From the NCBI GenBank assembly GCA_964577245.1, contig CAZNYI010000003.1, positions 1 through 33,704 of the forward strand: DNA of 33,704 nucleotides. The letters are read 5' to 3'. The position numbers were made by a program, and so were the translations under genes. Positions 204 through 15,341 of this stretch are shown here, one piece after another. The notes under the pieces were generated by a model, which was given only the letters and a program-made list of their open reading frames with translations, did no database searches and was not told the DNA's origin. The stretch's first letter is position 1. Each line of letters opens with the position of its first letter. The stretch is from an uncultured Candidatus Saccharibacteria bacterium (GTDB lineage Bacteria > Patescibacteriota > Minisyncoccia > UBA6257 > 2-01-FULL-56-20).

Positions 204-293
204 CAACGATAGCAAAACAGGAATGTAGGTTTTGAAAGCAGCTAGAGATTTACTGCTTTCAAAACCTACATTCCTGTTTTGCTATCGTTGTAC
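201..293. repeat. 41-bp perfect inverted repeat (AT-rich hairpin with an 11-nt loop) abutting the tRNA 3' end
   Basis: 201-241 is the exact reverse complement of 253-293, checked base by base. The loop 242-252 is ctagagattta. The left arm begins inside the last 3 nt of the tRNA-Glu gene. Confidence 0.9.
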
Positions 294-300
294 TTTCATT

Positions 301-445
301 GGGGGATTCGAACGGCAGGGGTGGGTCGGAGGGGGCGGCCCGCCCCCTCCGTGTTGGAGGGTCGCGCGTTTCGCGCGACAGTGCGGCACCGTGGGTGCCG
401 CAGGAGCGAAGCCGGTCTTACCGGCGAGCGACGTTCGAATCCCTC
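301..445. other. GC-rich nested-palindrome module; candidate structured ncRNA or MITE/REP-like element, class unknown
   Basis: A 14-bp closing inverted repeat 301-314/432-445 (one G-U) contains TTCGAA. Inside are four perfect palindromes with 3-nt loops: 328-337/341-350, 361-368/372-379, 383-390/394-401, 411-416/420-425. The tracked ORFs here translate to Gly/Pro/Arg low-complexity strings. Confidence 0.5.
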
Positions 446-535
446 TTATTTGACCAGGAGCATATATTGTTGTTCAATAAAAGGTGCCGGAGCGGATCGC
501 TTTGGTACGATTAAAAGAGAAGAAATTTATTTTTG

Positions 536-1801
536 ATGAAAACAAAGCCGGATTTCAAAAAGGCGAGTTGGTTAAACAAGTATAGGAGTAATATTGACTT
601 AGAACCATTTTTCCAGAGGGGAACGGTTTGGAGCGATGATAAAAAGCAATATTTTATCGACTCACTTCTGAAGGGATGGGGAACACCAAAGATATTTCTT
701 TGGGAGACCGGCAAAGATTCTTATGCCTGTCTTGATGGTAAGCAACGGCTGACTAGTCTATTTAAGTTTATGGCAGACAAGTTGCCACTTAAGGAAGATT
801 ATTCTCGAGGATACGGAGGAAGAAAATATTCTAAGTTGTCAGTTGCCATCCAAGATGCAATAGATAATTACAATTTTTCCGTAGAAATGTTGACTGAAGT
901 TGAAGGCGATGAGGCTATAGAGCTTTATAAACGGCTACAAGGAGGAACACCGCTTAATTTTGGAGAGAAGCTGTTTTCAATGTCGGGGAATATGAATGAC
1001 TTTATCAAGCGTCGGCTAAGCGCAAAAACTTTTTTCAAAGAAAGAATATCACTTCCAGATACAAGGTATTCTCATTATGCTGTTTGTGCTCAATTGTGTT
1101 TGCTAAGCATAAAGGGCGCAAAAGAGGATTTAAAACTAAAAAACTTAGAGAAGTTTTTTAAAGAGTACCACAACTTTAATTACAAAAGTCCAGAGGCAAA
1201 AAAGATTTTTGATGTTGTGCGGCACCTAGAAAAAGCATTTCCAAATAAAAACGATGCCGCGTTAAGAAATAGGGCGAGTGTTGTATCAATATTCTACTTA
1301 TTAGCAGATATATCCGCCCGAGGCGATATTTCTGGGCGAGAGAAAGAGATAGGTCTTTTCTTTAGTCGATTTGTAAAAAAAATTCAGAAAGAGCTTGATA
1401 AAAAGCCTGAGAATCGCAACCCAGCGTTGTTGAGCTATCAATCAGCGGTTACGCAGGGAGCAGATAAAATAAAATCAATAAATATACGACACGGCGTATT
1501 ACTGAAGGAACTAGAAGAAAAAAACAGATTTTTTTATAGCCTCCTTAATCCAATATCTCCGCAGGATCAATTTGCAAAAGCTTATAATGAGGCACGAAAA
1601 AAACTAAAAATTACAAGCATTGGCGCATTTGATGAATGGCTGATTAGAAACAAGGGACAAGTAGATATAAAATGTCCCGCGTCTCACGCTAGGGGAGAAA
1701 CGTTCATTGGCCACATCCTCAACTGTATCCACCATCCCGAACATGGAACTTTCTTGGTTAATAAGTTGGGAACGGCAACTAAGATTTTAAAAAGCATTTA
1801 A
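536..1801 (+). CDS. DUF262 (GmrSD/ParB-like N-terminal domain) protein
   Basis: FFQRGTVWS and LDGKQRLTSL match the QR-x-x-VW and DGQQR signatures of DUF262. Start is ATG 536; TTG 533 is in frame. No DUF1524/HNH-type C-terminal motif is recognisable by eye. AT-rich coding sequence. Confidence 0.7.
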   Translation: MKTKPDFKKASWLNKYRSNIDLEPFFQRGTVWSDDKKQYFIDSLLKGWGTPKIFLWETGKDSYACLDGKQRLTSLFKFMADKLPLKEDYSRGYGGRKYSKLSVAIQDAIDNYNFSVEMLTEVEGDEAIELYKRLQGGTPLNFGEKLFSMSGNMNDFIKRRLSAKTFFKERISLPDTRYSHYAVCAQLCLLSIKGAKEDLKLKNLEKFFKEYHNFNYKSPEAKKIFDVVRHLEKAFPNKNDAALRNRASVVSIFYLLADISARGDISGREKEIGLFFSRFVKKIQKELDKKPENRNPALLSYQSAVTQGADKIKSINIRHGVLLKELEEKNRFFYSLLNPISPQDQFAKAYNEARKKLKITSIGAFDEWLIRNKGQVDIKCPASHARGETFIGHILNCIHHPEHGTFLVNKLGTATKILKSI

Positions 1802-1823
1802 TAATGCGCAAGCACAGCGCACC

Positions 1824-1853
1824 TTGACAAACGCACCAATAATGTGGTACCAT
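1824..1853 (+). promoter_or_regulatory. sigma70-like promoter for the 470-aa gene
   Basis: TTGACA 1824-1829, 18-nt spacer, TGgTACCAT extended -10 ending at 1853. Confidence 0.4.
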
Positions 1854-1880
1854 TGTCACAGTATTTTTAACCCCGTCTTT

Positions 1881-1922
1881 CCTAGATAATTGCCCAATAG
1901 TTTTATTCGGCAGCTATCTAGG
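1881..1922 (+). promoter_or_regulatory. 5' UTR hairpin overlapping the Shine-Dalgarno site
   Basis: Arms 1881-1894 and 1909-1922 pair at 13 of 14 positions (one G-U, one mismatch). The 3' arm covers the first 3 nt of SD AGGAGGG (1920-1926). ATG is at 1934. Confidence 0.45.
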
Positions 1923-1933
1923 AGGGACCATAT

Positions 1934-3346
1934 ATGGACGCAAAATCAATCGCAGACCAAGCGCGCGAAAGGGCGAGAATCGCCCTCGAGCAAGAGCAAC
2001 TGAGACAACAAGAGGCCAAGGAACAGGAAAATCAGGAAGCTGCCCAGCGGCAGCGCTCCGACTACCCCGACATCCTCCGCGCCAAAATCTCCGCCGGATT
2101 GAACGTTGAAAAGACCGGCGACTACACGCAAGACCTCGCGGCGTTTCAGGGGCAGATGCGGGAATTCATCAACACGATTCCCGCCGCACTGCTCCTCAAA
2201 GCTGAATGCAGTATCCTGGCGCGAATCATCGGATACGCCGTCGAGATGCTGAGCATCGTCCCGGACATTCCGGCGCACATTCTCGGAAGCAAACCGAGCG
2301 AAGACCGGCTCAAGCCGTACATCGACCAGGTGCTTCATCGCAATCTCCGCGCTCGTACGTTCGCCAACCTTCTCTCGGACGCCGAAGTTCGCGAGCGGCT
2401 GTACGCGACCTGCGAGCCGGAAACGTTTGAAGCGCGCCTCAACGCGCTGGCCGGGGAAGTCCAACAGGCCAAACCCACGGTCGGCGACTCGGACGCCTTT
2501 CAGGCGGACTGTCGCAGTCGTTGGATAAAGGTTTTCGAAGCGGTCGAGGCGGTCAACGCAATCGGCTACTTCCAGACCAACGGAACCTACATCCTTCGCG
2601 CCAACATCAACTGGAAGGCTGGATGGCGGTACGATTCTGGCATGGGGTACGTCGCCGACACGACCGATCGGACGTTCATTCTCTCCCGGATCAACCAGGG
2701 AGCGGAAGTCGCCCGCATCGCGAAGATTGTCGAGACGCTGAAGGGTTGGACGGTTGCGCTCGAAACGCTGCCGCCCCAAACCAAGAAAGCGCTCGACGAA
2801 CTGGAGTGCGAAGCCTATCGTGCGACGGCGCTCGGAAAGCTCATCCGCAGCTTGGAGGTGTTCGGTGTCTGGTCGACCAACCAGTGCATCGACACGACCT
2901 CGCATCCGTACCACGTGGGAGAACTCGCCGAACCGTTTCTCGAGATGCTCAACGAGTATGCGGCAGTGAGTCCCGTTTCGGCGGTGGTCATCCTGCATCG
3001 CATGGCGAGCACGGTTGGCAGTTGCTACGGCTACAATTGCCCCGAAGAGAGCCTAGTCGACAATGGCAGGGAGCCTGCCGCGTGGATCGACGTTTTCAAG
3101 CTCCCGGAAGTCCGCTCGGTCTTTCAGGGCAAGCGCAGTCCCAAGTGGGTTGCGCTTCAGGTCCACCGGCTGTTCGCGGTGTGCCGGCAATACATCAACT
3201 GGCGGAAGGACAGTTGGCAAGACTGGCACTTCCGCCAAGGCGCCGAACCGAAAGACATCGCCGAGCAGTGGCTCAAAGTGCGCAACGACGAGGCCTATTG
3301 GCAGGCACTCGCGGAAGAAGAAAGGCGCCGCCGGGAGAGCGCGTAG
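1934..3346 (+). CDS. hypothetical protein, 470 aa, with charged coiled-coil-like termini
   Basis: Long GC-rich ORF. SD AGGAGGG lies 7 nt upstream of ATG 1934. An intrinsic terminator follows at 3385-3418. No recognisable domain. Confidence 0.65.
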   Translation: MDAKSIADQARERARIALEQEQLRQQEAKEQENQEAAQRQRSDYPDILRAKISAGLNVEKTGDYTQDLAAFQGQMREFINTIPAALLLKAECSILARIIGYAVEMLSIVPDIPAHILGSKPSEDRLKPYIDQVLHRNLRARTFANLLSDAEVRERLYATCEPETFEARLNALAGEVQQAKPTVGDSDAFQADCRSRWIKVFEAVEAVNAIGYFQTNGTYILRANINWKAGWRYDSGMGYVADTTDRTFILSRINQGAEVARIAKIVETLKGWTVALETLPPQTKKALDELECEAYRATALGKLIRSLEVFGVWSTNQCIDTTSHPYHVGELAEPFLEMLNEYAAVSPVSAVVILHRMASTVGSCYGYNCPEESLVDNGREPAAWIDVFKLPEVRSVFQGKRSPKWVALQVHRLFAVCRQYINWRKDSWQDWHFRQGAEPKDIAEQWLKVRNDEAYWQALAEEERRRRESA

Positions 3347-3384
3347 AGATCGGCAGTATTGATTGATTGCGTTCATCTTGAACC

Positions 3385-3418
3385 GGCCGCAGGACAACTC
3401 TGTTCTGCGGCCTTTTTT
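3385..3418 (+). terminator. intrinsic terminator
   Basis: Stem GGCCGCAG 3385-3392 / CTGCGGCC 3405-3412, followed by T6 at 3413-3418. Confidence 0.8.
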
Positions 3419-3482
3419 ATTGCTATGAGAAGCATCTCTAATTCGCACCGACTTTACCTCCAACGCGAGCGCATCAAAATGA

Positions 3483-3495
3483 TATAATCAATCAC
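3483..3495 (+). promoter_or_regulatory. -10 box placed for a leaderless transcript
   Basis: TATAAT 3483-3488, 7 nt, then ATG 3496. No SD. Confidence 0.5.
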
Positions 3496-3984
3496 ATGGA
3501 AGTCGTCCTAACCTCGAACGAACAAAAACTCGTAGACTACTCAAAAGAGGCGATCGTCGCTTATAACAAGATGCGCCACGAACGAGGCGACATTGATACG
3601 CTGTATTCTTTTGTGATGTCAGACAGCGGAAAAATATACGACGGCGTATGCTTTGAGCCAAATATCGCCCAAGCTACCGTTTGCGGAGAGCGCCATGCCA
3701 TACAAAATATGGTGTTGAAAGAATCATATAAAGCAAAGATAGAAACTATCGTGGTTGCCGATCCAGTTCCAGAAGTACAAAAAAAGAGCACCCCTCCTTG
3801 CGGTACGTGCCGACATCTCATTTGGCAGTTTGGTAATCCTGACGCGACGGTTATTCTGATGCAATATATCCAAGGGAAGAACGGGTGGACTTTTCCAAAG
3901 ATGGAGAAGTACACGATCAAAGAGTTATATCCGCATCCATATGAACCCGTGGAAGGTCTCTGGAATAACTGGGAGCCGAAGTAA
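3496..3984 (+). CDS. cytidine / blasticidin-S deaminase-like zinc deaminase
   Basis: CGERHAI corresponds to the C-A-E motif (Gly in place of Ala). PPCGTCRHLIW corresponds to PCxxC. Size (162 aa) fits the homotetrameric CDA family. Confidence 0.7.
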   Translation: MEVVLTSNEQKLVDYSKEAIVAYNKMRHERGDIDTLYSFVMSDSGKIYDGVCFEPNIAQATVCGERHAIQNMVLKESYKAKIETIVVADPVPEVQKKSTPPCGTCRHLIWQFGNPDATVILMQYIQGKNGWTFPKMEKYTIKELYPHPYEPVEGLWNNWEPK

Positions 3985-3987
3985 CCC

Positions 3988-4713
3988 ATGAAGGAATATT
4001 TTGGTAAGAGCTCCAAGGTATACGAGCAAACGCGGGGCAAGCGCTTTGTCCTCATCCCTGCCATAAGGCGCAATCTTAAAAAATCATCTAACGGGAAATT
4101 ATTGGATGTTGGCTGTGGGATAGGAGACCTATCATTAGTGGCAAATGCAAAAGGATATACCTATTATGGCGTTGATGTTTCAAAAGACATGATCGCGCGC
4201 GCCAAGCAGATTTTTCCAAGCGGAAAATTTATCGTGGCCTCCGCAACCAATTTCTCCTCCCATTTCAAAGAGAAGTTTGATGTCATATTATTGAGCATGC
4301 TTTTGCCGGCGATCAAAGAAGAGAAGGACCTGCTCAAAACCCTTCAAGAGTGCAAGAAAGTATTAAAACCCCACGGAGAAATTATCCTCGGCGAGCCCTA
4401 TCCGACATTTGATGGCTACATGCAGTCGTCTCTCTTCCAGCGTAAGGACGTTAAAACAAAATTTGCCGGGTATTTTGCGTCGGGCACTCCGGTTTCCATA
4501 ACGCACAAAATGGGCAAAGGGCGTCTCACGTTTAATGACTATCACCGGACGCTCGCCGACTACTGGAATGTAATAAAAAAAGCGGGGCTTGCGGTGGATC
4601 GTCTGGATGAATGCCCTCCCGACAAGACCGCCATGAAATTTGATAAATCATTCTATCGGGACAGGTCTCGTTTCCCAACGTATCTACTTCTCGTCTGTAA
4701 GGCGGGGGATTAA
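3988..4713 (+). CDS. class I SAM-dependent methyltransferase
   Basis: LLDVGCGIGDLS matches motif I, with downstream FDVILLSM and LKPHGEIILGEP. The gene starts 3 nt after the deaminase stop. Confidence 0.75.
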   Translation: MKEYFGKSSKVYEQTRGKRFVLIPAIRRNLKKSSNGKLLDVGCGIGDLSLVANAKGYTYYGVDVSKDMIARAKQIFPSGKFIVASATNFSSHFKEKFDVILLSMLLPAIKEEKDLLKTLQECKKVLKPHGEIILGEPYPTFDGYMQSSLFQRKDVKTKFAGYFASGTPVSITHKMGKGRLTFNDYHRTLADYWNVIKKAGLAVDRLDECPPDKTAMKFDKSFYRDRSRFPTYLLLVCKAGD

Positions 4714-4751
4714 ATAGAATCGCTCAAATGTCGTTGCGAGCTCTCCTTCGC

Positions 4752-4782
4752 AAAAAAAGGGAGCTATCTTGCGACAACTCCC
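4752..4782 (-). terminator. intrinsic terminator for the 4797-5117 gene
   Basis: Minus-strand stem GGGAGTT/AGCTCCC (plus 4759-4765 / 4776-4782) is followed by T7 (plus A-run 4752-4758). Confidence 0.7.
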
Positions 4783-4796
4783 GACGTGAGGTTCTT

Positions 4797-5117
4797 TCAC
4801 GATGCCTGCGAGGATGGGTCGGACGTTCTGACCGCAACGAATCCCTTGATGAAACAGTGTGGGAACTGGTGGTAGAGGTCGCCCCTATCTTCGAGGGAAA
4901 ATCCTGTCACCTGGGCGATGAGCATGAAAAGCGTTGCGATTTGGTACGCATTGAGAGCCGGCGGAAGCCACTGGCGGAGGCGGCGACCAGTTTCGATGTC
5001 GAAATTGATCCTGAGCCCATTCCGGCAAACGAACCAATCTCCATCCTGGAAGTCGTATAGCAGCGCATCGCCGGGCCGCAATTCCAAGCTCGTATCGTGG
5101 GCAATCTGACTTGTCAT
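4797..5117 (-). CDS. hypothetical protein, 106 aa
   Basis: SD AGGAGC (plus 5124-5129) lies 6 nt upstream of ATG 5117. Promoter 5136-5164 and terminator 4752-4782 flank it. C/G-ending codons dominate. A same-phase antisense ORF (4728-5060) competes. Confidence 0.5.
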   Translation of the reverse strand: MTSQIAHDTSLELRPGDALLYDFQDGDWFVCRNGLRINFDIETGRRLRQWLPPALNAYQIATLFMLIAQVTGFSLEDRGDLYHQFPHCFIKGFVAVRTSDPSSQAS

Positions 5118-5135
5118 GGGAATGCTCCTACTGGA

Positions 5136-5164
5136 CTTATAGCGTGGGCGGTTATGAAAGTCAA
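5136..5164 (-). promoter_or_regulatory. sigma70-like promoter
   Basis: On the minus strand: TTGACT (5159-5164), 17-nt spacer, TATAAG (5136-5141). Confidence 0.5.
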
Positions 5165-5223
5165 TAAATCGTAATGCTTCAATGGCTTGGAATAATCAAA
5201 ATCATTCACGATTACATCCTCCC

Positions 5224-5256
5224 TAAAATTTTAAAGGCGCAGCTAGTAGCTGCGCC
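5224..5256 (-). terminator. intrinsic terminator for the 5293-5577 gene
   Basis: Palindrome GGCGCAGC...GCTGCGCC at 5236-5256, followed on the minus strand by a T/A-rich run (plus 5224-5235). Confidence 0.7.
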
Positions 5257-5292
5257 AAGGCGAAAACGGATGGAAGTAGTTGTAGATCGCGC

Positions 5293-5577
5293 TTACGGGG
5301 CGACCTCTTGGTCGGCCGGAAATGAGTTGTTCCTCGCGAGCCACCGTTCCACAACCTTGGCCAGATCGGCCGGATTTGTGAGCTCGGGCGTCTCCTCGAG
5401 GAAGTAACCGTCTTCAAGTTCGGCGCGCATGGCCTCCAGCGCGCGTCCACGCCAAACGTTTTTGACGGCAAGGCCAATCTTCGCCGCCGCTGCCTCGATG
5501 GAGTCGGCAGCTACGATCCCGAACGGCATGCATTGCGTTCTTTCATCGGGAATCAGCCCGGTTAAGTCGAAGAGCAC
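5293..5577 (-). CDS. hypothetical protein, 94 aa
   Basis: GTG start at 5577 with SD AGGAGG (plus 5585-5590) 7 nt upstream. A terminator lies downstream. GC-rich. Confidence 0.5.
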   Translation of the reverse strand: MLFDLTGLIPDERTQCMPFGIVAADSIEAAAAKIGLAVKNVWRGRALEAMRAELEDGYFLEETPELTNPADLAKVVERWLARNNSFPADQEVAP

Positions 5578-5678
5578 GATCGCACCTCCTGAGAATGTTG
5601 TACATCACATTGCGTTGCCTTGTCAATTTAGCGCGCGCCGTTCAACCCCATCATTCTAAAATAATTCTAAAACCCACC

Positions 5679-5708
5679 TTGACTTCTCCCAAAATACGGC
5701 CTTATACT
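5679..5708 (+). promoter_or_regulatory. promoter placed for a leaderless hicB-like transcript
   Basis: TTGACT 5679-5684, 18-nt spacer, TATACT 5703-5708, then 8 nt to ATG 5717. Confidence 0.5.
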
Positions 5709-5716
5709 ACCTATTG

Positions 5717-6064
5717 ATGAACACTCTAAAAACGCGCGTCGTCAACACTAAAAAGAGCGGCATTGTTCACTTTGTCTATGTCTCAAACGACAAAGGTGCT
5801 TTTGGTATTTGTTTGGATTTTAATATTGTAGAAGAGGGTGCTACTGAGGCCGAGGTGCGTAAACACCTTGAAATCGCGGTTGCTTTGCACATAGAAACGG
5901 TTCGCGAAAAAAATCTTTCCGACGATCTTTTGAACCGTCTTGCTCCGCAAGAGTATTGGGATATGTATGATGACTTTCACACCAAGAAATCTGCCAAGGG
6001 AAAAAATTCTTTGCGGGTAGAGGGAATGGAATATACAAAAACCGCTTTGCCGATGGGCGTGTAA
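5717..6064 (+). CDS. HicB/UPF0150-like antitoxin
   Basis: GAFGICLDFNIVEEGATEAEVRKHLEIAVALHIE resembles the HicB N-terminal fold signature (G-x-T-x-E-E-A...A). It lies directly upstream of a HicA-like ORF. Confidence 0.5.
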   Translation: MNTLKTRVVNTKKSGIVHFVYVSNDKGAFGICLDFNIVEEGATEAEVRKHLEIAVALHIETVREKNLSDDLLNRLAPQEYWDMYDDFHTKKSAKGKNSLRVEGMEYTKTALPMGV

Positions 6065-6079
6065 TGCTTTCCAATCATC

Positions 6080-6352
6080 ATGGCGAGCGGCATTAGTAAT
6101 TGGAGCCATGATGACGTAATTGAGTTTTTGGAATACCACGGCTTTTCTTTCGGAAAAGAGCTCGGTGGTTCTCATAGCGCATGGATAAGCCACGATAGCA
6201 AATGTGTGGTTGATGTAAATCTAACGAAATCGTCCTATCCAGAATTAACTATGCTGACAATAATAAGCAACTCTGGGTTGAGTAAAGAACATTGGCGAAA
6301 GTGGACCACGCTCAGTAAAAGCCTGAAAAAGAAGCTGGTTTGTTGCCGCTAA
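6080..6352 (+). CDS. HicA-like mRNA interferase toxin
   Basis: DVIEFLEYHGFSFGKELGGSHSAW matches the HicA/YcfA pattern (L-x-x-x-G-F...GSH). 90 aa. Confidence 0.55.
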   Translation: MASGISNWSHDDVIEFLEYHGFSFGKELGGSHSAWISHDSKCVVDVNLTKSSYPELTMLTIISNSGLSKEHWRKWTTLSKSLKKKLVCCR

Positions 6353-6361
6353 GAAGGTCTT

Positions 6362-6832: not shown

Positions 6833-6870
6833 TTTGTGAAATTGTTCGAAGGCCATCCAGCCCCGCTCAA

Positions 6871-8637: not shown

Positions 8638-8661
8638 CCATCGGAACGGGGGTTGGCGTTG

Positions 8662-8889: not shown

Positions 8890-8912
8890 CTGGAACTCCT
8901 TTCACTAATCAC

Positions 8913-8941
8913 TTTATACGACACTAGGATTAGTAAGTCAA
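8913..8941 (-). promoter_or_regulatory. sigma70-like promoter
   Basis: On the minus strand: TTGACT (8936-8941), 17-nt spacer, TATAAA (8913-8918). Confidence 0.5.
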
Positions 8942-9041
8942 AACCGTTCGAGCATCGTCCAGCTCCGTGCGTTTATGAAAATGAAAGCCCCGCACCACGT
9001 GAAGGTTTGGGGCCTTCGGTGAATGCGGGGTTGTGCTGCGC

Positions 9042-9566
9042 TTACTTTGCGGTTGCTTCCGCGTCGATCTCGGCAAGCGCTGCCGAGAGCTTCTCTTTCT
9101 CGCGGCGGATCTGTCCGTTGAGCCAGCCGCTCAGCGTGAATCCTTTCGGGGGTTTGTAGAGGGTCACGGAGTAACCCCCTACGCTGTGATGATCTTTCAC
9201 GATGTAGCCTTCACGGATTTCCACCGCATAGGCCACCCGGTCCGGCTGGCCGAGACGGAGTAGTGCCTCGCCAACGGTCTCGCCGTCCTCGTATTCGTTG
9301 TCCCAGTTTGCCTCGTTGTGGGTGATGTCGATGGTCTGGCGCACCTCAGCGAGCAATTTCCCGCTGGCACTGAGGAGAAAAATCTTCGCGTCGTCCGCGA
9401 TGTCGACCAGGTTGCCGGTCGCGCCATCGTGGAGAGCCCGCTTCTCCATGAACTCATGGGAGATGCGGCTCACCCTTGTCTCCATGTCCTCTTTCCACTC
9501 GACTGGGAGAATCCACAGCAAACTCTCAAACTCCTGCCGAAACACGTGAATTCCAAAGCGATTCAT
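9042..9566 (-). CDS. hypothetical protein, 174 aa
   Basis: SD GGAAGGAGAG (plus 9571-9580) is upstream of ATG 9566. A hairpin lies downstream near 8985-9030. GC-rich, no recognisable domain. Confidence 0.55.
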   Translation of the reverse strand: MNRFGIHVFRQEFESLLWILPVEWKEDMETRVSRISHEFMEKRALHDGATGNLVDIADDAKIFLLSASGKLLAEVRQTIDITHNEANWDNEYEDGETVGEALLRLGQPDRVAYAVEIREGYIVKDHHSVGGYSVTLYKPPKGFTLSGWLNGQIRREKEKLSAALAEIDAEATAK

Positions 9567-9713
9567 AGGTCTCTCCTTCCGCTTCTCGCGGATGTCTATG
9601 GAGCCAGCATCTCGCTATCGGCTCCGGAGTGATGATATGAGGCGTTATTGCTTCTCGTGCCATATCGCACGCTTTCCGGATGGGGAAAGGAACGATGCCA
9701 AAATACTAACTAT

Positions 9714-9741
9714 ATTGTAGCATATTCATAAATCCTGTCAA
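9714..9741 (-). promoter_or_regulatory. sigma70-like promoter giving a roughly 140-nt leader
   Basis: On the minus strand: TTGACA (9736-9741), 16-nt spacer, TACAAT (9714-9719), then AT and AGTTAG (9706-9711). Confidence 0.5.
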
Positions 9742-9760
9742 GCTCCAGTAAAACAGCAAC

Positions 9761-9793
9761 AAAAAAGAAGGGTGGTCAGCCCCTTCTTGTTTT
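9761..9793. terminator. bidirectional-looking intrinsic terminator (serves the REC gene)
   Basis: Stem AAGAAGGG 9765-9772 / CCCTTCTT 9781-9788, with an A-run before and a T-run after. Confidence 0.75.
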
Positions 9794-9818
9794 ACGACCG
9801 TTGCTGCGCCCGCTGCGC

Positions 9819-10205
9819 CTACTGGAGGAACTGAGCGATCTTTTCCCCCATGGTGTCGTCGTCTTTGTACTTGGCGAACACCATGTTCGCCCCGGCCTGC
9901 CGCGCAGCTTCAAGGTAGCCCTTGGCTTTGGACCATGCCACAATGACAATGTTGGGGCAGAGCACTCTGATCGAGCGGATCAGATTGACGCCCGCTTCCG
10001 GATAGCCGCCATCCTGGAACATCAAGTTGGTTACGATGACGCGCGGGAGCCGCCCTTCGGTCTTGTCCATTCTCAAGCGGGCGAGAACCAGGCCCGGCGT
10101 TGATAGCGTGTCGGGGTCCACTTCGAACTGGTCTCCTAAGAGCCGCTGGGCGCGCCGAGCGCCGATAGTTGTATCTTCGGCTAACAACAGTTTAATCCTT
10201 TCCAT
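9819..10205 (-). CDS. stand-alone CheY-like receiver (REC) domain protein, atypical
   Basis: KLLLAEDT matches the acidic pocket, VIVTNLMFQDGG matches VISDWNMPNMDG, and MVFAKY carries the conserved Lys. Asn60 sits where the phospho-acceptor Asp is expected. Alignment to CheY is by eye. Confidence 0.65.
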   Translation of the reverse strand: MERIKLLLAEDTTIGARRAQRLLGDQFEVDPDTLSTPGLVLARLRMDKTEGRLPRVIVTNLMFQDGGYPEAGVNLIRSIRVLCPNIVIVAWSKAKGYLEAARQAGANMVFAKYKDDDTMGEKIAQFLQ

Positions 10206-10227
10206 TACTGCCCCCTAACTAATCGGG

Positions 10228-10256
10228 ATTATATGAATATGACACTAGAAAGTCAA
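10228..10256 (-). promoter_or_regulatory. sigma70-like promoter
   Basis: On the minus strand: TTGACT (10251-10256), 17-nt spacer, TATAAT (10228-10233). Confidence 0.55.
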
Positions 10257-10385
10257 TTCCACTTGCATTTTCCCTAGCTCGCGTATAAAATATATCTGTG
10301 GTGTTCGTGAGGGCTTTGGCTCTCCCGCGGTTCAATAAAGGAATTCCTTTAAACCGCAGACGATCGCCACGTTTAAGGACCGAAG

Positions 10386-10865
10386 CTACTGCGTCTCCAT
10401 GTCCCCGTCATGGAGAATTTTTTTTGGCGCTCCATTCACCATCTTGGTTTTCCAATGAGGGTAAATGCTCCAAAAAAATTTATTGCCGCCTTTGATTTGT
10501 TTGACTACTATTTTCACTCGCACCTCGTCTACGATGGCAACGAACCCAAAATAATTGACACGGACCATCCTGTTTTCCCAGCGCGAATTAATTTTCTGGC
10601 GTTCAAAATGACTTTGCTCTCTGAATTCTTGCAGGGTGTGACTGGCATGAATTATAACGGGCGCGAGATATAATAACTTTAGTCGTCGATATTGGTCTTC
10701 TATCAACCTCGTTTTATTCCAATCCTTAAACTTTATATGATCAAGACCCTTTGTGTTGAAAGCTACCACCTCTTTAAAATAAGGACAGCTAACTTCACCT
10801 ATTTTTTTATATAATTCTTCCGCCTGATCTTTCACCCTTTGCAATTCCTCGGGAGTTATCACCAT
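10386..10865 (-). CDS. hypothetical protein, 159 aa
   Basis: AT-rich ORF with ordinary amino-acid composition. TATAAT (plus 10877-10882) lies 11 nt upstream of ATG 10865, with no SD. Confidence 0.6.
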   Translation of the reverse strand: MVITPEELQRVKDQAEELYKKIGEVSCPYFKEVVAFNTKGLDHIKFKDWNKTRLIEDQYRRLKLLYLAPVIIHASHTLQEFREQSHFERQKINSRWENRMVRVNYFGFVAIVDEVRVKIVVKQIKGGNKFFWSIYPHWKTKMVNGAPKKILHDGDMETQ

Positions 10866-10953
10866 TTTATTACCGAATTATAATTGTCCAATTCCAATGC
10901 GCAAGCTTCCTTTAATGATTTTTTAATCTTTCATTTTTTGCCTCACTCAAAAA

Positions 10954-10982
10954 TTGACACCTCCTTCCGTGCGAGCTACTCT
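10954..10982 (+). promoter_or_regulatory. sigma70-like promoter
   Basis: TTGACA 10954-10959, 17-nt spacer, TACTCT 10977-10982. Confidence 0.45.
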
Positions 10983-11000
10983 TTTCGTAGCGGAGGCCAC

Positions 11001-11426
11001 ATGTTGACTATCAATAGCATCATCCGAAGCATGCGCTTAACCGAGCAGTCTGGAAGAGGCAGAGACACGGGAGGCGTTCTTCGTCGTAAGCCGCTCCCGC
11101 CCGCCAAGCAGCACCCGCAGCGGAAGTCCCGTGCCCTTGCACGTTTCAAGCCGGGGCTTTCGATTGAGCTCGGGTGTTACAAAAAGGGATGCGGCGCGGT
11201 CCGCATTCCTGTGACCCTCGGAGAAGACGAAACAAAGCTTCTCCATCCCACCTTCCACGGCCCCGACGAAATTCGATGGAAGCCGGGGACGCCCGTCAAG
11301 GCGTTTCTCCTCGCAAAGCGGGTCCACTGCCCGCACTGCACGACGCTGTTCGAGAGTGCGATCATCGTTTCGAACGGCTGGGGCCGGCGGCCGACCATCT
11401 TCGGGTATGAGCCCGAGCCCATATAG
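11001..11426 (+). CDS. hypothetical protein, 141 aa (trimmed from tracked ORF 10884-11426)
   Basis: GGAGG 10992-10996 precedes ATG 11001. A terminator follows at 11449-11480. The C-terminal half is protein-like and includes CPHC. Confidence 0.45.
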   Translation: MLTINSIIRSMRLTEQSGRGRDTGGVLRRKPLPPAKQHPQRKSRALARFKPGLSIELGCYKKGCGAVRIPVTLGEDETKLLHPTFHGPDEIRWKPGTPVKAFLLAKRVHCPHCTTLFESAIIVSNGWGRRPTIFGYEPEPI

Positions 11427-11448
11427 AATCAAGATCGGAAGCCAGTTC

Positions 11449-11480
11449 GGGAGTTGCTTGAAAAAGCACTCCCTTTTTTT
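11449..11480 (+). terminator. intrinsic terminator
   Basis: Stem 11449-11457 / 11466-11473 (one bulge), followed by T7 at 11474-11480. Confidence 0.8.
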
Positions 11481-11483
11481 GTA

Positions 11484-11512
11484 TTGATTTTCATATAAAT
11501 ACGTCATAGTAT
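11484..11512 (+). promoter_or_regulatory. sigma70-like promoter
   Basis: TTGATT 11484-11489, 17-nt spacer, TAGTAT 11507-11512. Confidence 0.45.
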
Positions 11513-11549
11513 GTGCATAGCCATCGAGGCAGATCGTTAGGAGGTGTTT

Positions 11550-11942
11550 ATGGTCATTAGACAGATTGCTCCGGGCGTTACGGTAATTGAAGAGGGCGAG
11601 ATCGGAGTGGAGATTTCCATTCCGCATCCCGACCCGTGCTGGGTCGTTGAGATGCGAGACGGCAGGGTGATCGGGAGCCGCGAATCGCTTCTGGTTTTTT
11701 CGAGCGACGAAAAAGCAGCCGCCTTCATCACTACTGCATCGGCTAAGAAAGCTCTGAACGACGATTGCGTTCCTCGGCAGTATCCATGGAACGAAGTCGT
11801 CGATCAGTTCGCTGGCCAGTTCGAAGCGGCTACGCTCGACCATCGCGGCGTGGCAGGCTGTTACCGGTCCATCCCACTGCAGAAGGAACTGAGCTGGGGA
11901 GGCGGCAGTGACCAAGCGAAATCGGCCGGCCCATCGCAATAA
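11550..11942 (+). CDS. hypothetical protein, 130 aa
   Basis: AGGAGG 11539-11544 lies 5 nt upstream of ATG 11550. The tracked start, GTG 11544, lies inside the SD. Confidence 0.55.
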   Translation: MVIRQIAPGVTVIEEGEIGVEISIPHPDPCWVVEMRDGRVIGSRESLLVFSSDEKAAAFITTASAKKALNDDCVPRQYPWNEVVDQFAGQFEAATLDHRGVAGCYRSIPLQKELSWGGGSDQAKSAGPSQ

Positions 11943-12051
11943 GAGTGAGACGAACGCAGCCCGCGCCAAACGTGTGGGCGAGCGTGAGTACGAAGCGGCA
12001 GTGGAGGCCGGTTTAAGCAAGAAGGCCGCCAGAAAGTTGAGGAAGGCCTAG
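11908..12051 (+). CDS. possible small basic protein, 47 aa, overlapping the upstream gene's end
   Basis: GGGGAGG 11896-11902 lies 5 nt upstream of GTG 11908. Hand translation gives MTKRNRPAHRNKSETNAARAKRVGEREYEAAVEAGLSKKAARKLRKA with stop at 12049-12051. A T-rich tract follows. Confidence 0.25.
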   Translation: MTKRNRPAHRNKSETNAARAKRVGEREYEAAVEAGLSKKAARKLRKA

Positions 12052-12098
12052 TCGGCAAGATCAGTGGTGGGCGTCAGTTCGAAAGAACGGCGCCTCTT

Positions 12099-12311
12099 TT
12101 ATTTTTCAAATTCCGATTTCGGCAATTTTGACTGCTTGATTATTTGATGCAGGGTCCCCATTGGTATGGATCTATTGCTATGCACCGGTACTATGACAAT
12201 ATTCCCGGATTGTATGTGCCGATATATCTGATGACTGCCGTTTTGGCGGACAAGGAAAAACCAGTTGCGGCGCAGAATTGCCGCAACCTCCTTGGCGGTA
12301 TGTGGACGCAT
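12099..12311 (-). CDS. hicA: HicA family mRNA interferase toxin
   Basis: AKEVAAILRRNWFFLVRQNGSHQIYRH matches the HicA signature. 70 aa. The start lies 1 nt after the hicB-like stop. Confidence 0.75.
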   Translation of the reverse strand: MRPHTAKEVAAILRRNWFFLVRQNGSHQIYRHIQSGNIVIVPVHSNRSIPMGTLHQIIKQSKLPKSEFEK

Positions 12312-12312
12312 G

Positions 12313-12588
12313 CTATTTTTTTGCGACCGTAATTGTTATCTTCGCAACGCCGGTATCGGCGGATGGAATTTTCTTTTTCCGGTGCAACAATTCTTCGATC
12401 CACAACGTAAGCGCTTCTTTCGCCATGCGCTTTGCATGGGAGAGATTGTTCCCGAAGGTTACGCATCCAGGGAGGGCAGGGAATGAAACATTGAATCCGC
12501 CTTCTTTGGCGGGATCAAGCACGGCCACGTAGTTGTATACGGTTTCGCGGGGCATTTTTTTATTTTTGTTGACCTTTTTCTTCCCCAT
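12313..12588 (-). CDS. hicB: HicB family antitoxin
   Basis: YVAVLDPAKEGGFNVSFPALPGCVTFGNNLSHAKRMAKEALTLWIEEL matches the HicB/UPF0150 signature. TACTAT (plus 12597-12602) lies 8 nt upstream of ATG 12588. Confidence 0.7.
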   Translation of the reverse strand: MGKKKVNKNKKMPRETVYNYVAVLDPAKEGGFNVSFPALPGCVTFGNNLSHAKRMAKEALTLWIEELLHRKKKIPSADTGVAKITITVAKK

Positions 12589-12639
12589 GATAACAAATAG
12601 TACATTAAAACTATCTTAAACACTACGCGGTAGAAAAAC

Positions 12640-12669
12640 TTGACAAAAAACGCAGAACGGTGTTATAAT
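12640..12669 (+). promoter_or_regulatory. sigma70-like promoter
   Basis: TTGACA 12640-12645, 18-nt spacer, TATAAT 12664-12669. Confidence 0.55.
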
Positions 12670-12708
12670 TAACCCGTTCGTTGAGAACTGAATATTTGAG
12701 AGGATGCC

Positions 12709-13386
12709 ATGAAAAACATCTATTTTGCTCTGCTGATTTCGCTGGGTCTCGCTCTCACGAGCTTTGCCCAGGATACTGCAATCACCACCGACAACGACCC
12801 AGCGACCACGATCGTTCTGGCTCGTACTGGCGTGCGTACCGACGCACCGCATGTGGGAACGTACCACATGGTTGAAGCGTTTCAGGTGCGCGGCAAGTGG
12901 ATCGTTCCCGACGTGTGCTACATCGACTACGGTACCGGGAATTATCACGAGTTGTGCATCGGCGCCGGCAGGACGTTCTATGACGGCAAGCGGGCGATGG
13001 TAGCAAGCGAGTTGTACTTCGCTCAGGCCACCGGCCCCGCCGCCAAAAGCGCCAGATACCTCTGGCCGTGGACAATCGTCCAGTTTCACTTCACCAAAAA
13101 GTGGAACAGTGAGGCCGTCTACTTTCCGTATCTGCCCTTGAACTCGTCCGCTCGGATCCAACATGTCATTGAGCGGGCGAAAGTAGAATACACCATCAAC
13201 AAGACATTCAAGGTTGGTGGCGGCTACGCGGGATACAGGTACGGCGACGACACGTGGCAGAGCAAGCCGATGCTCACTACGACGATTTCGACAAAGCGAA
13301 CGGGTGCGTTTGAGTTCTGGCTGCAAAAGATGCCAGGCGGCGGGCAAATCCAGTTTCGCTACGTACTGGCGTACGCCAAAAAGTAA
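12709..13386 (+). CDS. secreted hypothetical protein, 225 aa, aromatic-rich and possibly beta-rich
   Basis: N-terminal signal peptide MKNIYFALLISLGLALTSFAQD. SD GAGAGGA is upstream. A terminator follows at 13449-13489. GC-rich. Confidence 0.6.
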   Translation: MKNIYFALLISLGLALTSFAQDTAITTDNDPATTIVLARTGVRTDAPHVGTYHMVEAFQVRGKWIVPDVCYIDYGTGNYHELCIGAGRTFYDGKRAMVASELYFAQATGPAAKSARYLWPWTIVQFHFTKKWNSEAVYFPYLPLNSSARIQHVIERAKVEYTINKTFKVGGGYAGYRYGDDTWQSKPMLTTTISTKRTGAFEFWLQKMPGGGQIQFRYVLAYAKK

Positions 13387-13448
13387 TTCGCGCGCATTCT
13401 CTCGCATCAGATTTCCCATGGATCGGGGGGGGGCAACCGATCCGCAAT

Positions 13449-13489
13449 GAGCCCACTACCTACACGACGGAGTGGGCTCGATCATTTTT
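13449..13489 (+). terminator. intrinsic terminator
   Basis: Stem GAGCCCACT 13449-13457 / AGTGGGCTC 13471-13479, followed by a T-run at 13485-13489. Confidence 0.65.
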
Positions 13490-13528
13490 ATATTTCCATT
13501 TCCACATTAAAAAATTATTAAAAAACTT

Positions 13529-13556
13529 TTGACTAAGTGGAAATTTTCTCTACACT
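13529..13556 (+). promoter_or_regulatory. promoter placed for a leaderless transcript
   Basis: TTGACT 13529-13534, 16-nt spacer, TACACT 13551-13556, then 6 nt to ATG 13563. Confidence 0.45.
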
Positions 13557-13562
13557 TGAAGC

Positions 13563-14033
13563 ATGGCTCTCACGGATTTTCTCTATTCAATAATTATCTT
13601 CCTGCTCGGCGGGTTGGGTTATTTTGCTAAGCGAACCTATGATGACGTGGGCGTGCTTAAGATTGACGTCGCCGACATGAAGCCAAAAGTATCCATCATG
13701 TGGGAATTATTGCGTGAGCGGGCATTCTCGCTTTCTTCATCGCCGACTGTTTTAAATGAGAAAGGAAAACAGTTACTTTATGAGGGCGGTGTAAAAGAAA
13801 TAGTTGATGCCAACGTGGGACGTCTTATGCGAGCATTGGCTGATCTCGGCCCACAAAACGCTTATCAGGTTCAAGAAGGTTCTCATAAAGCAATGAGGAC
13901 TATTTTGGATGATACTGTTTTTGTTGCACGGCTGGAGAAAATAGCTTTTAAGAACGGGGTTAACGTTGACGCCCTTCTTTTCGTCGGGGCGATTTATCTT
14001 AGGGATTTAGCGCTGTCGAAATGTGAAATGTAA
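13563..14033 (+). CDS. hypothetical membrane-anchored protein, 156 aa
   Basis: N-terminal hydrophobic helix FLYSIIIFLLGGLGYF. AT-rich ORF with a leaderless-type promoter. Confidence 0.6.
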   Translation: MALTDFLYSIIIFLLGGLGYFAKRTYDDVGVLKIDVADMKPKVSIMWELLRERAFSLSSSPTVLNEKGKQLLYEGGVKEIVDANVGRLMRALADLGPQNAYQVQEGSHKAMRTILDDTVFVARLEKIAFKNGVNVDALLFVGAIYLRDLALSKCEM

Positions 14034-14036
14034 AAA

Positions 14037-14075
14037 GCGGGAGGGGACGGTGTTGATGCCGTCGGTCCCTCCCGC
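14037..14075. terminator. GC-rich hairpin, terminator-like
   Basis: GCGGGAGGG 14037-14045 pairs with CCCTCCCGC 14067-14075, with further imperfect pairing inside. An A-run on the plus side (14032-14036) gives a T-run on the minus strand. Confidence 0.5.
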
Positions 14076-14197
14076 TGTCCGGTTCGCGACCGCGCTCGCG
14101 AAGCGGAGTATGCCGCCCTGATTGGGCGTATGAAGCTTATCAACAACCCGAACCCGTTCCGATCCGGGAAGCTTGATGCGGCCAATCTTCCGCGGCG

Positions 14198-14584
14198 TTA
14201 GTCGCCGGTGGCTTCGTCTTTGTCGCGATCTCCGTGCTCTGGGTCGCTTTCACACGTGATGCACGTGTTGGCCTCGGGAGTTTTCAGGAGCCGATTCGGA
14301 TCAATCGGGCCCCTGCAGGTCGAGCAGTCGAAGTACGTGCCCATTTCTATCTTCCGCTGCGCCATGATCGCGAGCGTGCGGCGCAGCCCCTGATTCTGGA
14401 GCCGGATCGACGCGATACTCCCCAAGAGGTTTTCCACCGCGGCGTCGATGTTGTCGGACGATTGTTCTGGTGTTCGGATTGCCTCCACGTCCGTGGCACT
14501 AAAGCCCTCGGCAATGATCTTTTCCAGCTTTTCTTTCTGCTTGGCCAAGTCAATTTTTTTGACCTGGTCCGTTTTCGTTCCCAT
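14198..14584 (-). CDS. DksA/TraR-family C4 zinc-finger protein
   Basis: CSTCRGPIDPNRLLKTPEANTCITC fits the CxxC-N17-CxxC DksA/TraR finger after a helical N-terminus. SD GGAGGGAGGAAGGG is upstream. Confidence 0.75.
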   Translation of the reverse strand: MGTKTDQVKKIDLAKQKEKLEKIIAEGFSATDVEAIRTPEQSSDNIDAAVENLLGSIASIRLQNQGLRRTLAIMAQRKIEMGTYFDCSTCRGPIDPNRLLKTPEANTCITCESDPEHGDRDKDEATGD

Positions 14585-14671
14585 ATAGTTTTCCCTTCCT
14601 CCCTCCCATCGGGTATTCCGATAGAAGCTGGTTGCAGAGTACTATAAAAATGCCGATATGGCAATAGGCCG

Positions 14672-14708
14672 TAAAAATTTAAAAGGCCATGGATTGAATC
14701 CATGGCCT
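14672..14708 (-). terminator. intrinsic terminator for the 14729-15247 gene
   Basis: An 11-bp stem AGGCCATGGAT 14684-14694 / ATCCATGGCCT 14698-14708. A T-rich run follows on the minus strand. Confidence 0.75.
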
Positions 14709-14728
14709 GCGGGGTTGCCCCCGAATAT

Positions 14729-15247
14729 CTAGACGAGCACGATCTGGCCGATCTCCGCCGCCGCGCGGAGCTTCTTGTAGGCGATGTCGTTTGCCCACGC
14801 CGGCAGTGTCCGCAGGAACGGTTTCTGCAAACTCAAGCTCTCGAGCTGCCGCCACATCTCCTGCCACAGCGGATTGTTGTCTTGCCCGCGGTGCAGAATG
14901 CGGCACACGAAGCCCGTGAATGGCGGAACCTCCTGCCGCTTGGCGAGCGCGGCGAAGAGATCGTCGTTGCTCATTCCAATAGCGGCCGCTGTCTGATGAA
15001 TATGACTCAGAAAGAACTGCGCATCGGGCGCCCGCTTTGCCATGGCGACAAGCCCGAACCCGCGCCCAACGCAGACGGCGCTGCCATATATGGCAACCGC
15101 TCCGTCTTTGCAGCTGGCCAGTAGGCTGAACCCCGCTCGGTCTCGCCGTTCCTCGTTCCGAAACGCAACGATGACGCCGCGCTTGTCGGCCTCTTCTGCC
15201 ATAGCGCGTTGCACCCGCTGGAATGCCTCGTCTTTTATTTGAATCAA
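14729..15247 (-). CDS. hypothetical protein, 172 aa
   Basis: TTG start at 15247 with SD AGGAGA (plus 15254-15259) 6 nt upstream. A terminator lies downstream. Preferred over the Arg-rich alternative frame 14679-15311. Confidence 0.5.
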   Translation of the reverse strand: MIQIKDEAFQRVQRAMAEEADKRGVIVAFRNEERRDRAGFSLLASCKDGAVAIYGSAVCVGRGFGLVAMAKRAPDAQFFLSHIHQTAAAIGMSNDDLFAALAKRQEVPPFTGFVCRILHRGQDNNPLWQEMWRQLESLSLQKPFLRTLPAWANDIAYKKLRAAAEIGQIVLV

Positions 15248-15341
15248 ATTCTTTCTCCTGGATGAGATAACTACTATAAAATAAGATACTGTTTTTGTGC
15301 GATCCCGTCAAATAATTTCCTCAACATGGTAAGATTTTAGT

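Follow-up and report, generated by a model that had tools for sequence, protein, structure and literature searches.

The window analysed here is a whole NCBI contig of 33,704 bp from a Patescibacteria (candidate phyla radiation, CPR) bacterium of the Paceibacteria/Minisyncoccia type. Between its tRNA-Glu(CTC) gene and tpiA lies a mosaic accessory region of about 15 kb (15.1 kb), referred to below as the island, and a small structured element stands at its tRNA side (Table 1). The island is probably a genuine recombination and insertion hotspot, which is made of two kinds of units and renews its content by single transcription units. The 3' end of murF opens the window and is followed by the tRNA gene. 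At the other side, TpiA is 69% identical to its counterparts in the top species representatives, OY970175 and ‘Minisyncoccia bacterium SPRUCE 501’, and the gene order 3' of tpiA (SIMPL, GtrA, murB, hpf, and secA) is kept in those relatives. The flanking conserved genes tpiA and SIMPL have a GC content of 0.57 and 0.58. The open reading frames (ORFs) that an earlier note on this DNA had listed for the island are all present, with the same coordinates.

The two kinds of units differ in composition as well as in their initiation signals. The earlier note had called the genes GC-rich or AT-rich on sight, and the GC content per gene is indeed bimodal, with an empty gap at 0.479-0.546 (Mann-Whitney p = 2.5e-5). 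The 12 AT-rich genes have a GC of 0.38-0.48 and a GC at third codon positions (GC3) of 0.35-0.58, and the 13 GC-rich ORFs have a GC of 0.55-0.62 and a GC3 of 0.63-0.77. The 20 genes right of tpiA, which serve as the core, span 0.45-0.61 continuously, and each of the two island sets departs from this core (p about 1e-3 and 2e-5). Shine-Dalgarno (SD) sites were scored by the pairing energy with the anti-SD over the 18 nt 5' of the start, and a site was counted at -6 kcal/mol or below. Such sites precede 12 of the 13 GC-rich ORFs (mean -9.5), which bears out the strong SD described earlier for this class, as against 1/12 of the AT-rich genes (mean -1.9) and 3/20 of the core genes (mean -2.0). The contrast is significant with the AT-rich genes (Fisher p = 1.4e-5) and with the core (p = 3.3e-5).

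The AT-rich and core genes frequently have a TATAAT-like box 6-12 nt before the ATG, which suggests a leaderless or SD-independent initiation of both. For example, the deaminase-fold gene at 3496 has no SD and its -10 box lies 7 nt 5' of the ATG. The orthologous core genes in five relatives are likewise SD-less. Hence, the AT-rich genes combine host-type initiation signals with a foreign GC, and the GC-rich units combine a host-like GC with different signals. The same two classes are found in the island of L213, a related contig described below, where the AT-type genes are without SD and the genes of GC 0.56-0.63 are with SD. Over the core genes of the window (15342-33363) and of L002, L003, L005, L006, L009, and L213, an SD is almost never seen and many genes have a TATAAT-like box, as in the start of secA (ctataatccttacacaataacc ATG). 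A strong SD occurs in a minority of genes, which mostly encode secreted proteins. These starts suggest that leaderless or SD-independent initiation is lineage-wide.

The GC-rich units are equipped with individual sigma-70-type promoters, placed 20-120 nt upstream, with an SD-bearing leader and usually with an intrinsic terminator. The earlier description of these signals was too generous in two respects. The strict promoter, TTGAC(A/T)-N16-18-TAnnnT, had been assigned to nearly every GC-rich ORF and is present in just 4 of the 13, and in two AT-rich genes as well; a relaxed form (at least 10/12 match to TTGACA/TATAAT) is found in about 10 of the 13. Promoter-like sites are modestly enriched over the region (20 vs 13.2 +/- 3.4 in shuffles). 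Similarly, canonical hairpin-plus-T terminators stand behind about 8 of the 13 GC-rich ORFs, not behind nearly all.

The comparison with relatives agrees with the hypervariable accessory region that the earlier note had proposed: its 25 genes are not found upstream of tpiA in relatives, the length of the interval varies, a closer relative shares four cassettes only, and one junction is polymorphic in the population. In 80 species-level relatives, the 10 kb before tpiA encode none of the 25 proteins of the island, and everything downstream of tpiA is syntenic. The spacing between tRNA-Glu(CTC) and tpiA is 43 bp in L006 and 0.7, 1.6, 1.6, 2.5, 2.8, 3.8, and 8.9 kb elsewhere, as compared to the 15.1 kb of the window.

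This closer relative is L213, a 268-kb long-read contig that came up by way of the 90%-identity cluster of g10386. It shares 81-85% nucleotide identity with the window in the core and 82.5% identity in TpiA. The layout is murF, tRNA-Glu, hairpin, element, island (8.2 kb), and tpiA, and its flanking genes murF, ftsI, mraW, tpiA, SIMPL, and GtrA have a GC of 0.55-0.60. Four cassettes are common to both islands with their order kept, namely g10386 (90% amino acid identity), g11001 (67%), the 5' part of g13563, and g14198 (65%). Those missing from L213 are g11550, hicAB, the porin gene, g14729, and the whole tRNA-proximal 9.7 kb; an AAA_15 ATPase gene and other unrelated genes replace the window positions 450-10200. 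The edges of these differences are sharp. For example, the promoter of g9819 (10214-10256) drives in L213 an unrelated ORF of 177 amino acids (aa), and the divergence starts just past the -10 box. Likewise, two additional units of L213 sit exactly between the window positions 10256 and 10262. Whole transcription units have been gained, lost, or replaced at promoter and terminator edges.

Cassette replacement is also seen within the population. The variation was scored over the parts of the window that are covered by other assemblies (717-26101). It is concentrated in one polymorphic stretch with two substitution patches, one inside g11001 and one over the promoter and 5' part of g11550 (Table 1), which contains two of the three indels; outside both patches there are substitutions at 4563 and 11737 and one indel at 24843, and nothing else. 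The patches are recombination tracts between divergent alleles, and their substitutions are mostly synonymous (22 vs 14 non-synonymous), so that g11001 and g11550 are real genes under purifying selection. The ENA contig L001 diverges from the window solely left of 11483, where it has another minus-strand gene with a TTGACG-17-TAAGAT promoter and an AGGAGG site. The tracts and this junction together imply that the replacement of cassettes is ongoing.

The same assemblies speak to the authenticity of the contig. A chimera or mis-assembly of CPR DNA with that of a higher-GC organism, which the earlier note had kept as its alternative, would account for the sharp composition switches and for a diderm-type porin in a CPR contig, but it is hardly credible. 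Four further assemblies are collinear with the window over the parts they cover, and other assemblers and samples thus reproduce these stretches at 99.7-99.9% identity: a contig from Logan for run SRR8543846 (99.93% over the fetched part, window 1255-13346), ENA contigs of ERZ27245402 (717-11837, 99.88%, and 11483-26101, 99.73%), and a JGI contig of metagenome 3300031240 (7832-11802, 99.72%). L082 and L083 cross most of the composition switches. Moreover, the long-read contig L213 alternates likewise at the same locus, and each of the 13 switches lies within an intact intergenic region.

The origin of the cassettes is a separate question from their turnover. All of the 20 island proteins tested fall in 90%-identity clusters of one to three members, which mostly hold this population alone; the cluster of g10386, which includes L213, is an exception. 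The g1934 protein has 10 relatives among 1.84 billion representatives. Its AlphaFold2 (AF2) model is all-alpha with a predicted local distance difference test (pLDDT) score of 84, and no structural neighbour was found for it in the PDB. One homologue of g1934 lies on a CPR-like contig of 37% GC, where it is the sole SD-led gene and has a GC of 0.40. A gene that has adopted the GC of its host and yet kept its SD argues for a resident class of SD-led genes.

The porin gene g12709 is different. It has at least 161 homologues, up to 71% identical, in diderms of the Acidobacteriota type; some are labelled by NCBI as Acidobacteria, Acidiferrales, or Verrucomicrobiae. Two of them (60-62% identical) are on long contigs, by an arginine operon together with BamA and TamB and by cytochrome oxidase genes. 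The AF2 model (pLDDT 90.7) has a signal peptide or one N-terminal helix and a 12-strand barrel, which places the protein among the porins, and the best 38 Foldseek matches of the model are outer-membrane barrels, KdgM, OmpG, and NanC among them. Patescibacteria are not known to have an outer membrane. A diderm outer-membrane protein in such a lineage implies an inter-phylum transfer and, judged from its homologues and their gene context, the porin originated in diderm (soil) bacteria. A further copy, 64% identical, is on L205 (ERZ25039529 contig_7305, 216 kb), where the region 4900-10900 has a mix of SD-led and SD-less genes and a GC that swings between 0.43 and 0.60.

It could be supposed that two foreign donors contributed to the island, the GC-rich cassettes being from higher-GC, SD-using bacteria outside the CPR, possibly the host of the epibiont, and the AT-rich genes from a second source, interleaved gene by gene. 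The SD on 12 of the 13 GC-rich ORFs in a lineage that hardly uses SD would fit this, as would the porin, with homologues of 55-71% identity, two of them on long contigs in diderm genomes, and a fold that requires an outer membrane. We consider this origin unlikely nonetheless. The positional orthologues of g11001 and g14198 in L213 (65-67% aa identity) predate the split of the lineages, the GC of the cassettes is that of the flanking core (0.55-0.60), the homologue of g1934 on the 37%-GC contig has the GC of its host with the SD kept, and for 12 of the 13 cassettes no donor is shown. The orthologues in L213 and a GC close to that of the host indicate that the GC-rich class is for the most part resident; it is SD-led, evolves fast, is partly ancestral, and is not, in the main, freshly imported. 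Of the ‘at least two compositional sources’ in the earlier note, the two classes are thus real, and differ in initiation signals too, but the GC-rich class is mostly resident and only the porin is demonstrably foreign. Two simpler formulations were also considered. The view of the GC-rich cassettes as plainly native, with a foreign origin limited to the AT-rich genes, was modified once the SD sites and the porin were taken into account. The opposite view, in which every GC-rich cassette has come in recently from outside, lost weight through the orthologues in L213.

In composition, it is the AT-rich class that stands apart, with a GC well below that of the flanking core genes. Genomic islands and horizontal gene transfer are documented in Patescibacteria, and most transfers come in from other Patescibacteria (PMC12455944). 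The CPR style of initiation of the AT-rich units and their outlying GC fit such a mostly within-phylum transfer (PMC12455944).

In the hotspot reading, the low-GC units would most likely be recent acquisitions from a lower-GC gene pool of Patescibacteria, and the GC-rich units are monocistronic, with a GC that is host-like or slightly higher, and their proteins are orphans or very rare and change more quickly than those of the core. New DNA would enter mainly on the tRNA-proximal side, where the turnover is fastest and island DNA abuts the truncated att-like repeat. The integration may be due to a recombinase that acts in trans, or to illegitimate or homologous recombination after DNA uptake.

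Several points weigh against this reading. There is no integrase, transposase, or flanking repeat pair that marks the island. The comparison comprises one closer relative (L213) and one population only, too few to polarise gain and loss in most of the cassettes. A significant difference also separates the GC-rich set from the 20 ‘core’ genes of the window (p about 1e-3), so that its ‘host-like GC’ holds for the flanking conserved genes, not for the whole window. Likewise, ‘leaderless’ is a putative label that is drawn from the spacing between the -10 box and the ATG, not from transcripts.

The earlier note had seen no mobility gene, and the searches of Pfam, NCBIfam, PADLOC, and PHROGs gave no match to an integrase or transposase family for any of the 25 ORFs; 10 of the GC-rich ORFs gave one marginal PHROGs match only. 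This bears on the possibility that the island is the decayed remnant of a single tRNA-integrated island or prophage that has since lost its integrase. Its place beside a tRNA, the atypical composition, the repeats of the tRNA 3' end at its left edge, and a mobile-element-like block with ParB-like DNA methyltransferases at the same tRNA in L002 would suit such a remnant. It is nevertheless a poor candidate, as there is no integrase, no right-hand repeat, and only the one marginal PHROGs match, and as the alternating composition and signals and the unit-wise differences to L213 are incompatible with one insertion.

At the same site in L002 (OY970175.1, the closest complete chromosome; 4200-8320), tRNA-Glu is replaced by a block with two genes of ParB-like/N6-N4 DNA methyltransferases and one of an HslV-like protein, which looks like an integrated mobile element. 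After the block come a decayed remnant of the tRNA 3' end, the long hairpin, an element in degenerate form, and 19 nt that repeat the 3' end of tRNA-Glu. In L014 (1141-1310), a degenerate second tRNA-Glu-like sequence comes right after the intact tRNA-Glu; it comprises the anticodon arm, a T-arm with an insertion, and a 3' end that belongs to a different allele of tRNA-Glu.

The left edge of the island contradicts the earlier note, in which no direct repeat of the tRNA end had been seen. An 11-nt repeat, GTTCGAATCCC, lies at 433-443 in the structured element, and an inverted copy lies at 304-313; the window has three copies of the sequence GTTCGAATCC, one in the tRNA, an inverted one at 304-313, and a direct one at 433-442. 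The closing stem of the element is formed by GGGGGATTCGAAC and GTTCGAATCCCTC. The element has a fold z-score of -16 and matches the covariance model described below with 27 bits (E = 1.4e-4). The copy in L213 runs on as GATGGCGGTA and makes a perfect 21-nt repeat of the tRNA-Glu 3' end. Since the repeat of the window matches up to GTTCGAATCCC and island DNA follows from the next base, the left junction of the island lies inside an att-like repeat. A search for the tRNA 3' end near tpiA or elsewhere in the window gave nothing beyond chance, and hence no right-hand repeat; the covariance model found no further copy of the element inside the island.

Homologous elements lie 3' of tRNA-Glu in L003 (8602-8750), L005 (6275-6420), and L213, and in a degenerate form in L002, and they end in exact copies of the tRNA-Glu 3' end of their own genome. 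In L004, the copy is cut by the contig start and the upstream tRNA is not visible. Hairpins are found at the same position as that of the window, with another sequence, in L002, L003, L005, and L213. Those between the tRNA and the element are unusually long (stems of 18-42 bp) in the window and at L003 8446-8609, L002 8040-8205, and L213 about 5000-5170 (reverse strand), and typical metagenomic copies have a spacer with a shorter terminator-like hairpin flanked by A and T runs.

A pattern drawn from the conserved core of the element matched at least 120 metagenomic loci (L085-L204) and had 0 matches in viral contigs. Among the matches listed, 89 loci with enough upstream sequence were used for the counts of tRNA linkage. 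In these 89 loci, the element lies 2-300 nt (typically 20-60 nt) 3' of an intact tRNA on the same strand, and at least 20 isoacceptors are represented. In about 75 of the 89, the element closes with 13-24 nt (mode 14-18) that repeat the 3' end of the local tRNA exactly, from the T-loop to the discriminator or the CCA. The 5' arm of the element has a sequence complementary to that of the T-loop and of the T-stem's 3' strand, and it follows the local variant of the T-loop in 62 of 63 cases among the matches listed (p = 8e-16). The covariance model recovered 105 copies in 100 of the loci listed, up to three per contig. The covariation is far above the shuffled and slid controls, with 97.9% of cells paired and 13 of 16 pairs compensatory, and it is strong in two hairpins of the element.

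Where the tRNA gene has no CCA, the distal repeat is followed by CCA in 10/49 and by CC in 15/49 of the matches listed, and the gene copy by CC in 1/49. The distal copy may represent an older end of the tRNA in which the CCA is encoded, or else the 3' terminus of a tRNA-like RNA. In a few loci (L149 and L136), the duplication passes the tRNA 3' end and takes in at least 25-30 nt of the downstream flank with its terminator hairpin, so that a target segment of about 40-50 nt or more can be repeated. A small gene for a GIY-YIG (URI-domain) nuclease comes directly after the element in four of the loci listed, including L140, at 240-305 nt from the element start, and GIY-YIG-related genes are near the element in three more. 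Over the at least 120 loci listed, there is no conserved protein neighbour and no associated integrase. Most copies have housekeeping neighbours, so that the element is not specific to islands, and its link to the growth of the island is only positional.

The element was not matched to a described RNA. Two copies gave no match in Rfam at the gathering thresholds and chance-level matches only in the permissive mode, ARAGORN found no transfer-messenger RNA (tmRNA), and no paper on the element was found in the literature. A tmRNA, an RNase P RNA, a signal recognition particle (SRP) RNA, a split or permuted tRNA, and a minus-strand tRNA were each ruled out by sequence and structure, by the several copies per contig, and by the intact upstream tRNA. 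It is conceivable, if doubtful, that the copies are an undescribed family of miniature protein-less elements of Patescibacteria that integrate into the T-loop of any tRNA gene. The closing stem would then be either a folded phage-type attachment site (attP) that mimics the 3' part of the tRNA or a scaffold-plus-guide RNA; 433-443 would be a secondary att site for the entry of the island, and the element, not a classical integrase, would drive the hotspot. Such a stem would account for the exact copy of the 3' end of the local tRNA and for the 62/63 match of the arm to the local T-loop variant. If attP is in the 3' arm, the layout (tRNA, spacer hairpin, 5' arm, core, and 3' arm/repeat) would be the product of the integration of a small circle, and a single strand could, by means of the 5' arm, fold back on itself to form a double-stranded copy of the target, in the manner of attC or the attP of CTX-phage.

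Elements with tyrosine integrases that target the T-loop have direct repeats that span the tRNA from the T-loop to the 3' end (sublocation classes of tRNA integration sites). The tRNA-linked element resembles them, being bracketed by an intact tRNA 3' end and an exact repeat of 13-24 nt that extends from the T-loop to the discriminator or CCA. In contrast to them, it has about 150-300 nt between the repeats, encodes no protein, has a covarying core, and is without an integrase in at least 120 loci.

The gene content of the island is given in Table 1. The defence- or stress-type families named by the earlier note are mostly upheld by Pfam, NCBIfam, or PADLOC, namely DUF262/GmrSD_N, the cytidine-deaminase fold, the two Nudix hydrolases, and one HicAB pair. 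The second HicAB pair (5717/6080) is at most weakly supported, for its HicA_toxin match has 14.9 bits against a cut-off of 27 (E = 0.029), no HicB match was obtained, and BLAST gave no similarity to the confirmed HicA. Further family matches are those of the S-adenosylmethionine (SAM) methyltransferase and the DksA/TraR zinc finger. In PADLOC, the methyltransferase is a partial match to mad2 and the Nudix genes fall in the candidate family PDC-S07, with no complete known system on the island. The 128-aa GC-type protein of 9819-10205 aligns end to end with the receiver domain of response regulators, far below the threshold (E = 0.014), and may be a divergent stand-alone receiver. The terminator of the 4797 cassette is at 4782-4759.

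Table 1. Features of the left edge, the island, and its anchors, with their positions in the window.
Feature	Position	Strand	Remarks
tRNA-Glu(CTC)	129-204	+	Left anchor; ARAGORN; Rfam tRNA 54.6 bits
Hairpin right after the tRNA	200-294		Perfect 42-bp stem; within 51-nt inverted repeat 191-241 / 253-303, including the tRNA 3' end
tRNA-linked structured element	301-445	+	145 nt, GC-rich, multi-hairpin; stem 301-313 / 433-445; GGGTCGG 323-329 invariant; P1 327-351; extra hairpin 361-379; P2 383-401; P3 411-425
Truncated direct repeat of tRNA-Glu 3' end, GTTCGAATCCC	433-443	+	Island DNA from 444
DUF262/GmrSD_N (NsnA-like), putative type IV restriction/defence	536-1801	+	AT-type; GC 0.38; no SD; Pfam E = 3.6e-16; PADLOC NsnA E = 3e-24
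g1934, 470-aa all-alpha protein, rare family	1934-3346	+	GC-type; own promoter 1824-1853; AGGAGG SD; terminator 3385-3412
Two-gene unit: cytidine-deaminase fold (3496-3984), SAM methyltransferase (3988-4713)	3496-4713	+	AT-type
Two single-gene cassettes: 4797-5117 (106 aa), 5293-5577 (94 aa)	4797-5577	-	GC-type; both SD-led; no family match
Three-gene unit: 115, 90, 156 aa	5717-6832	+	AT-type; no SD; -10 box 8 nt 5' of first ATG; 90-aa protein weakly HicA-like
Terminator module 3' of g6936	6876-6929	-	84% conserved in L213, there behind another ORF
Two cassettes: 6936-7274 (112 aa), 7430-7606 (58 aa)	6936-7606	-	GC-type; both SD-led; terminator 7398-7373
Two overlapping Nudix hydrolase genes	7690-8612	+	AT-type; no SD; Pfam NUDIX E = 3e-19, 9.5e-16; PADLOC PDC-S07
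Three cassettes: 8662-8889 (75 aa), 9042-9566 (174 aa), 9819-10205 (128 aa)	8662-10205	-	GC-type; own promoter and SD each
Promoter module of g9819, TTGACT-17-TATAAT	10214-10256	-	86% conserved in L213
g10386, 159 aa, no family	10386-10865	-	AT-type; common to L213, 90% aa identity
g11001 (11001-11426, 141 aa), g11550 (11550-11942, 130 aa)	11001-11942	+	GC-type cassettes
Polymorphic stretch	11174-11676		Substitution patches 11174-11270 (in g11001) and 11496-11676 (promoter and 5' part of g11550)
hicB-hicA toxin-antitoxin pair	12099-12588	-	AT-type; Pfam HicA E = 2e-16, HicB E = 1.8e-11; not in L213
g12709, secreted 12-strand outer-membrane-type beta-barrel porin (predicted)	12709-13386	+	GC-type; perfect TTGACA-18-TATAAT promoter 12640-12669; not in L213
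g13563, 156 aa, N-terminal membrane helix	13563-14033	+	AT-type; 5' part conserved in L213
g14198, DksA/TraR-type zinc finger (14198-14584); g14729, orphan (14729-15202, 157 aa)	14198-15202	-	GC-type cassettes
tpiA	15342-16100	+	Right anchor; conserved synteny begins here

The island shares several traits with the tRNA-adjacent islands such as pheV and leuX of Enterobacteria and those of Patescibacteria (PMC12455944), which include the place at the tRNA side, the atypical composition, the strain- or species-specific content, the defence and toxin-antitoxin cargo, and the tRNA 3'-end repeats at the edge. It differs from them in that there is no mobility gene or right-hand repeat, the change is unit by unit, and the units form two classes by their initiation signals. 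Similarly, the likeness to defence islands is partial. A DUF262/GmrSD-like gene here and the AAA_15 ATPase gene in L213 come first after the att-like site, HicAB and Nudix genes are present, and the presence or absence of genes differs; however, the island has one solid match to a defence family (DUF262/NsnA-like), and half of its units are orphans without a defence signature.

Integron arrays, with their attC sites, and the attP of CTX-phage also invite comparison, given the self-contained units by a fixed site and a boundary element with a stem that re-creates the double-stranded 3' part of the tRNA. An integron-like array, with site-specific capture at a fixed site on the tRNA side and hairpins that act as attC-like sites, would agree further with the fastest turnover being tRNA-proximal, with a folded att-like element on the entry side, and with promoter and terminator modules that are reused with other ORFs. 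It is very improbable all the same, since there is no IntI-type recombinase, the cassettes have their own promoters and lie on both strands, the intergenic regions have no repeat family in common and none that is attC-like, and no further copy of the element is in the island. Recombination through a folded strand, unlike in integrons, is here an inference only.

The island is an integrase-less, unit-wise evolving, tRNA-adjacent island in a CPR genome, and is notable for the split of expression signals between its classes. It gives a base-pair view of how accessory genes are renewed in a reduced, host-dependent CPR genome without a resident mobility gene. The initiation signals, SD-led or SD-less, split the island classes better than the GC does and could be used to partition CPR pangenomes. 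The diderm porin in a Patescibacteria genome is a lead to the identity of the donor or the host, which is open for most CPR lineages. The tRNA-linked element, the most novel item of the locus, is new either as a non-coding mobile element or as an RNA that mimics a tRNA, and this alternative is directly testable.

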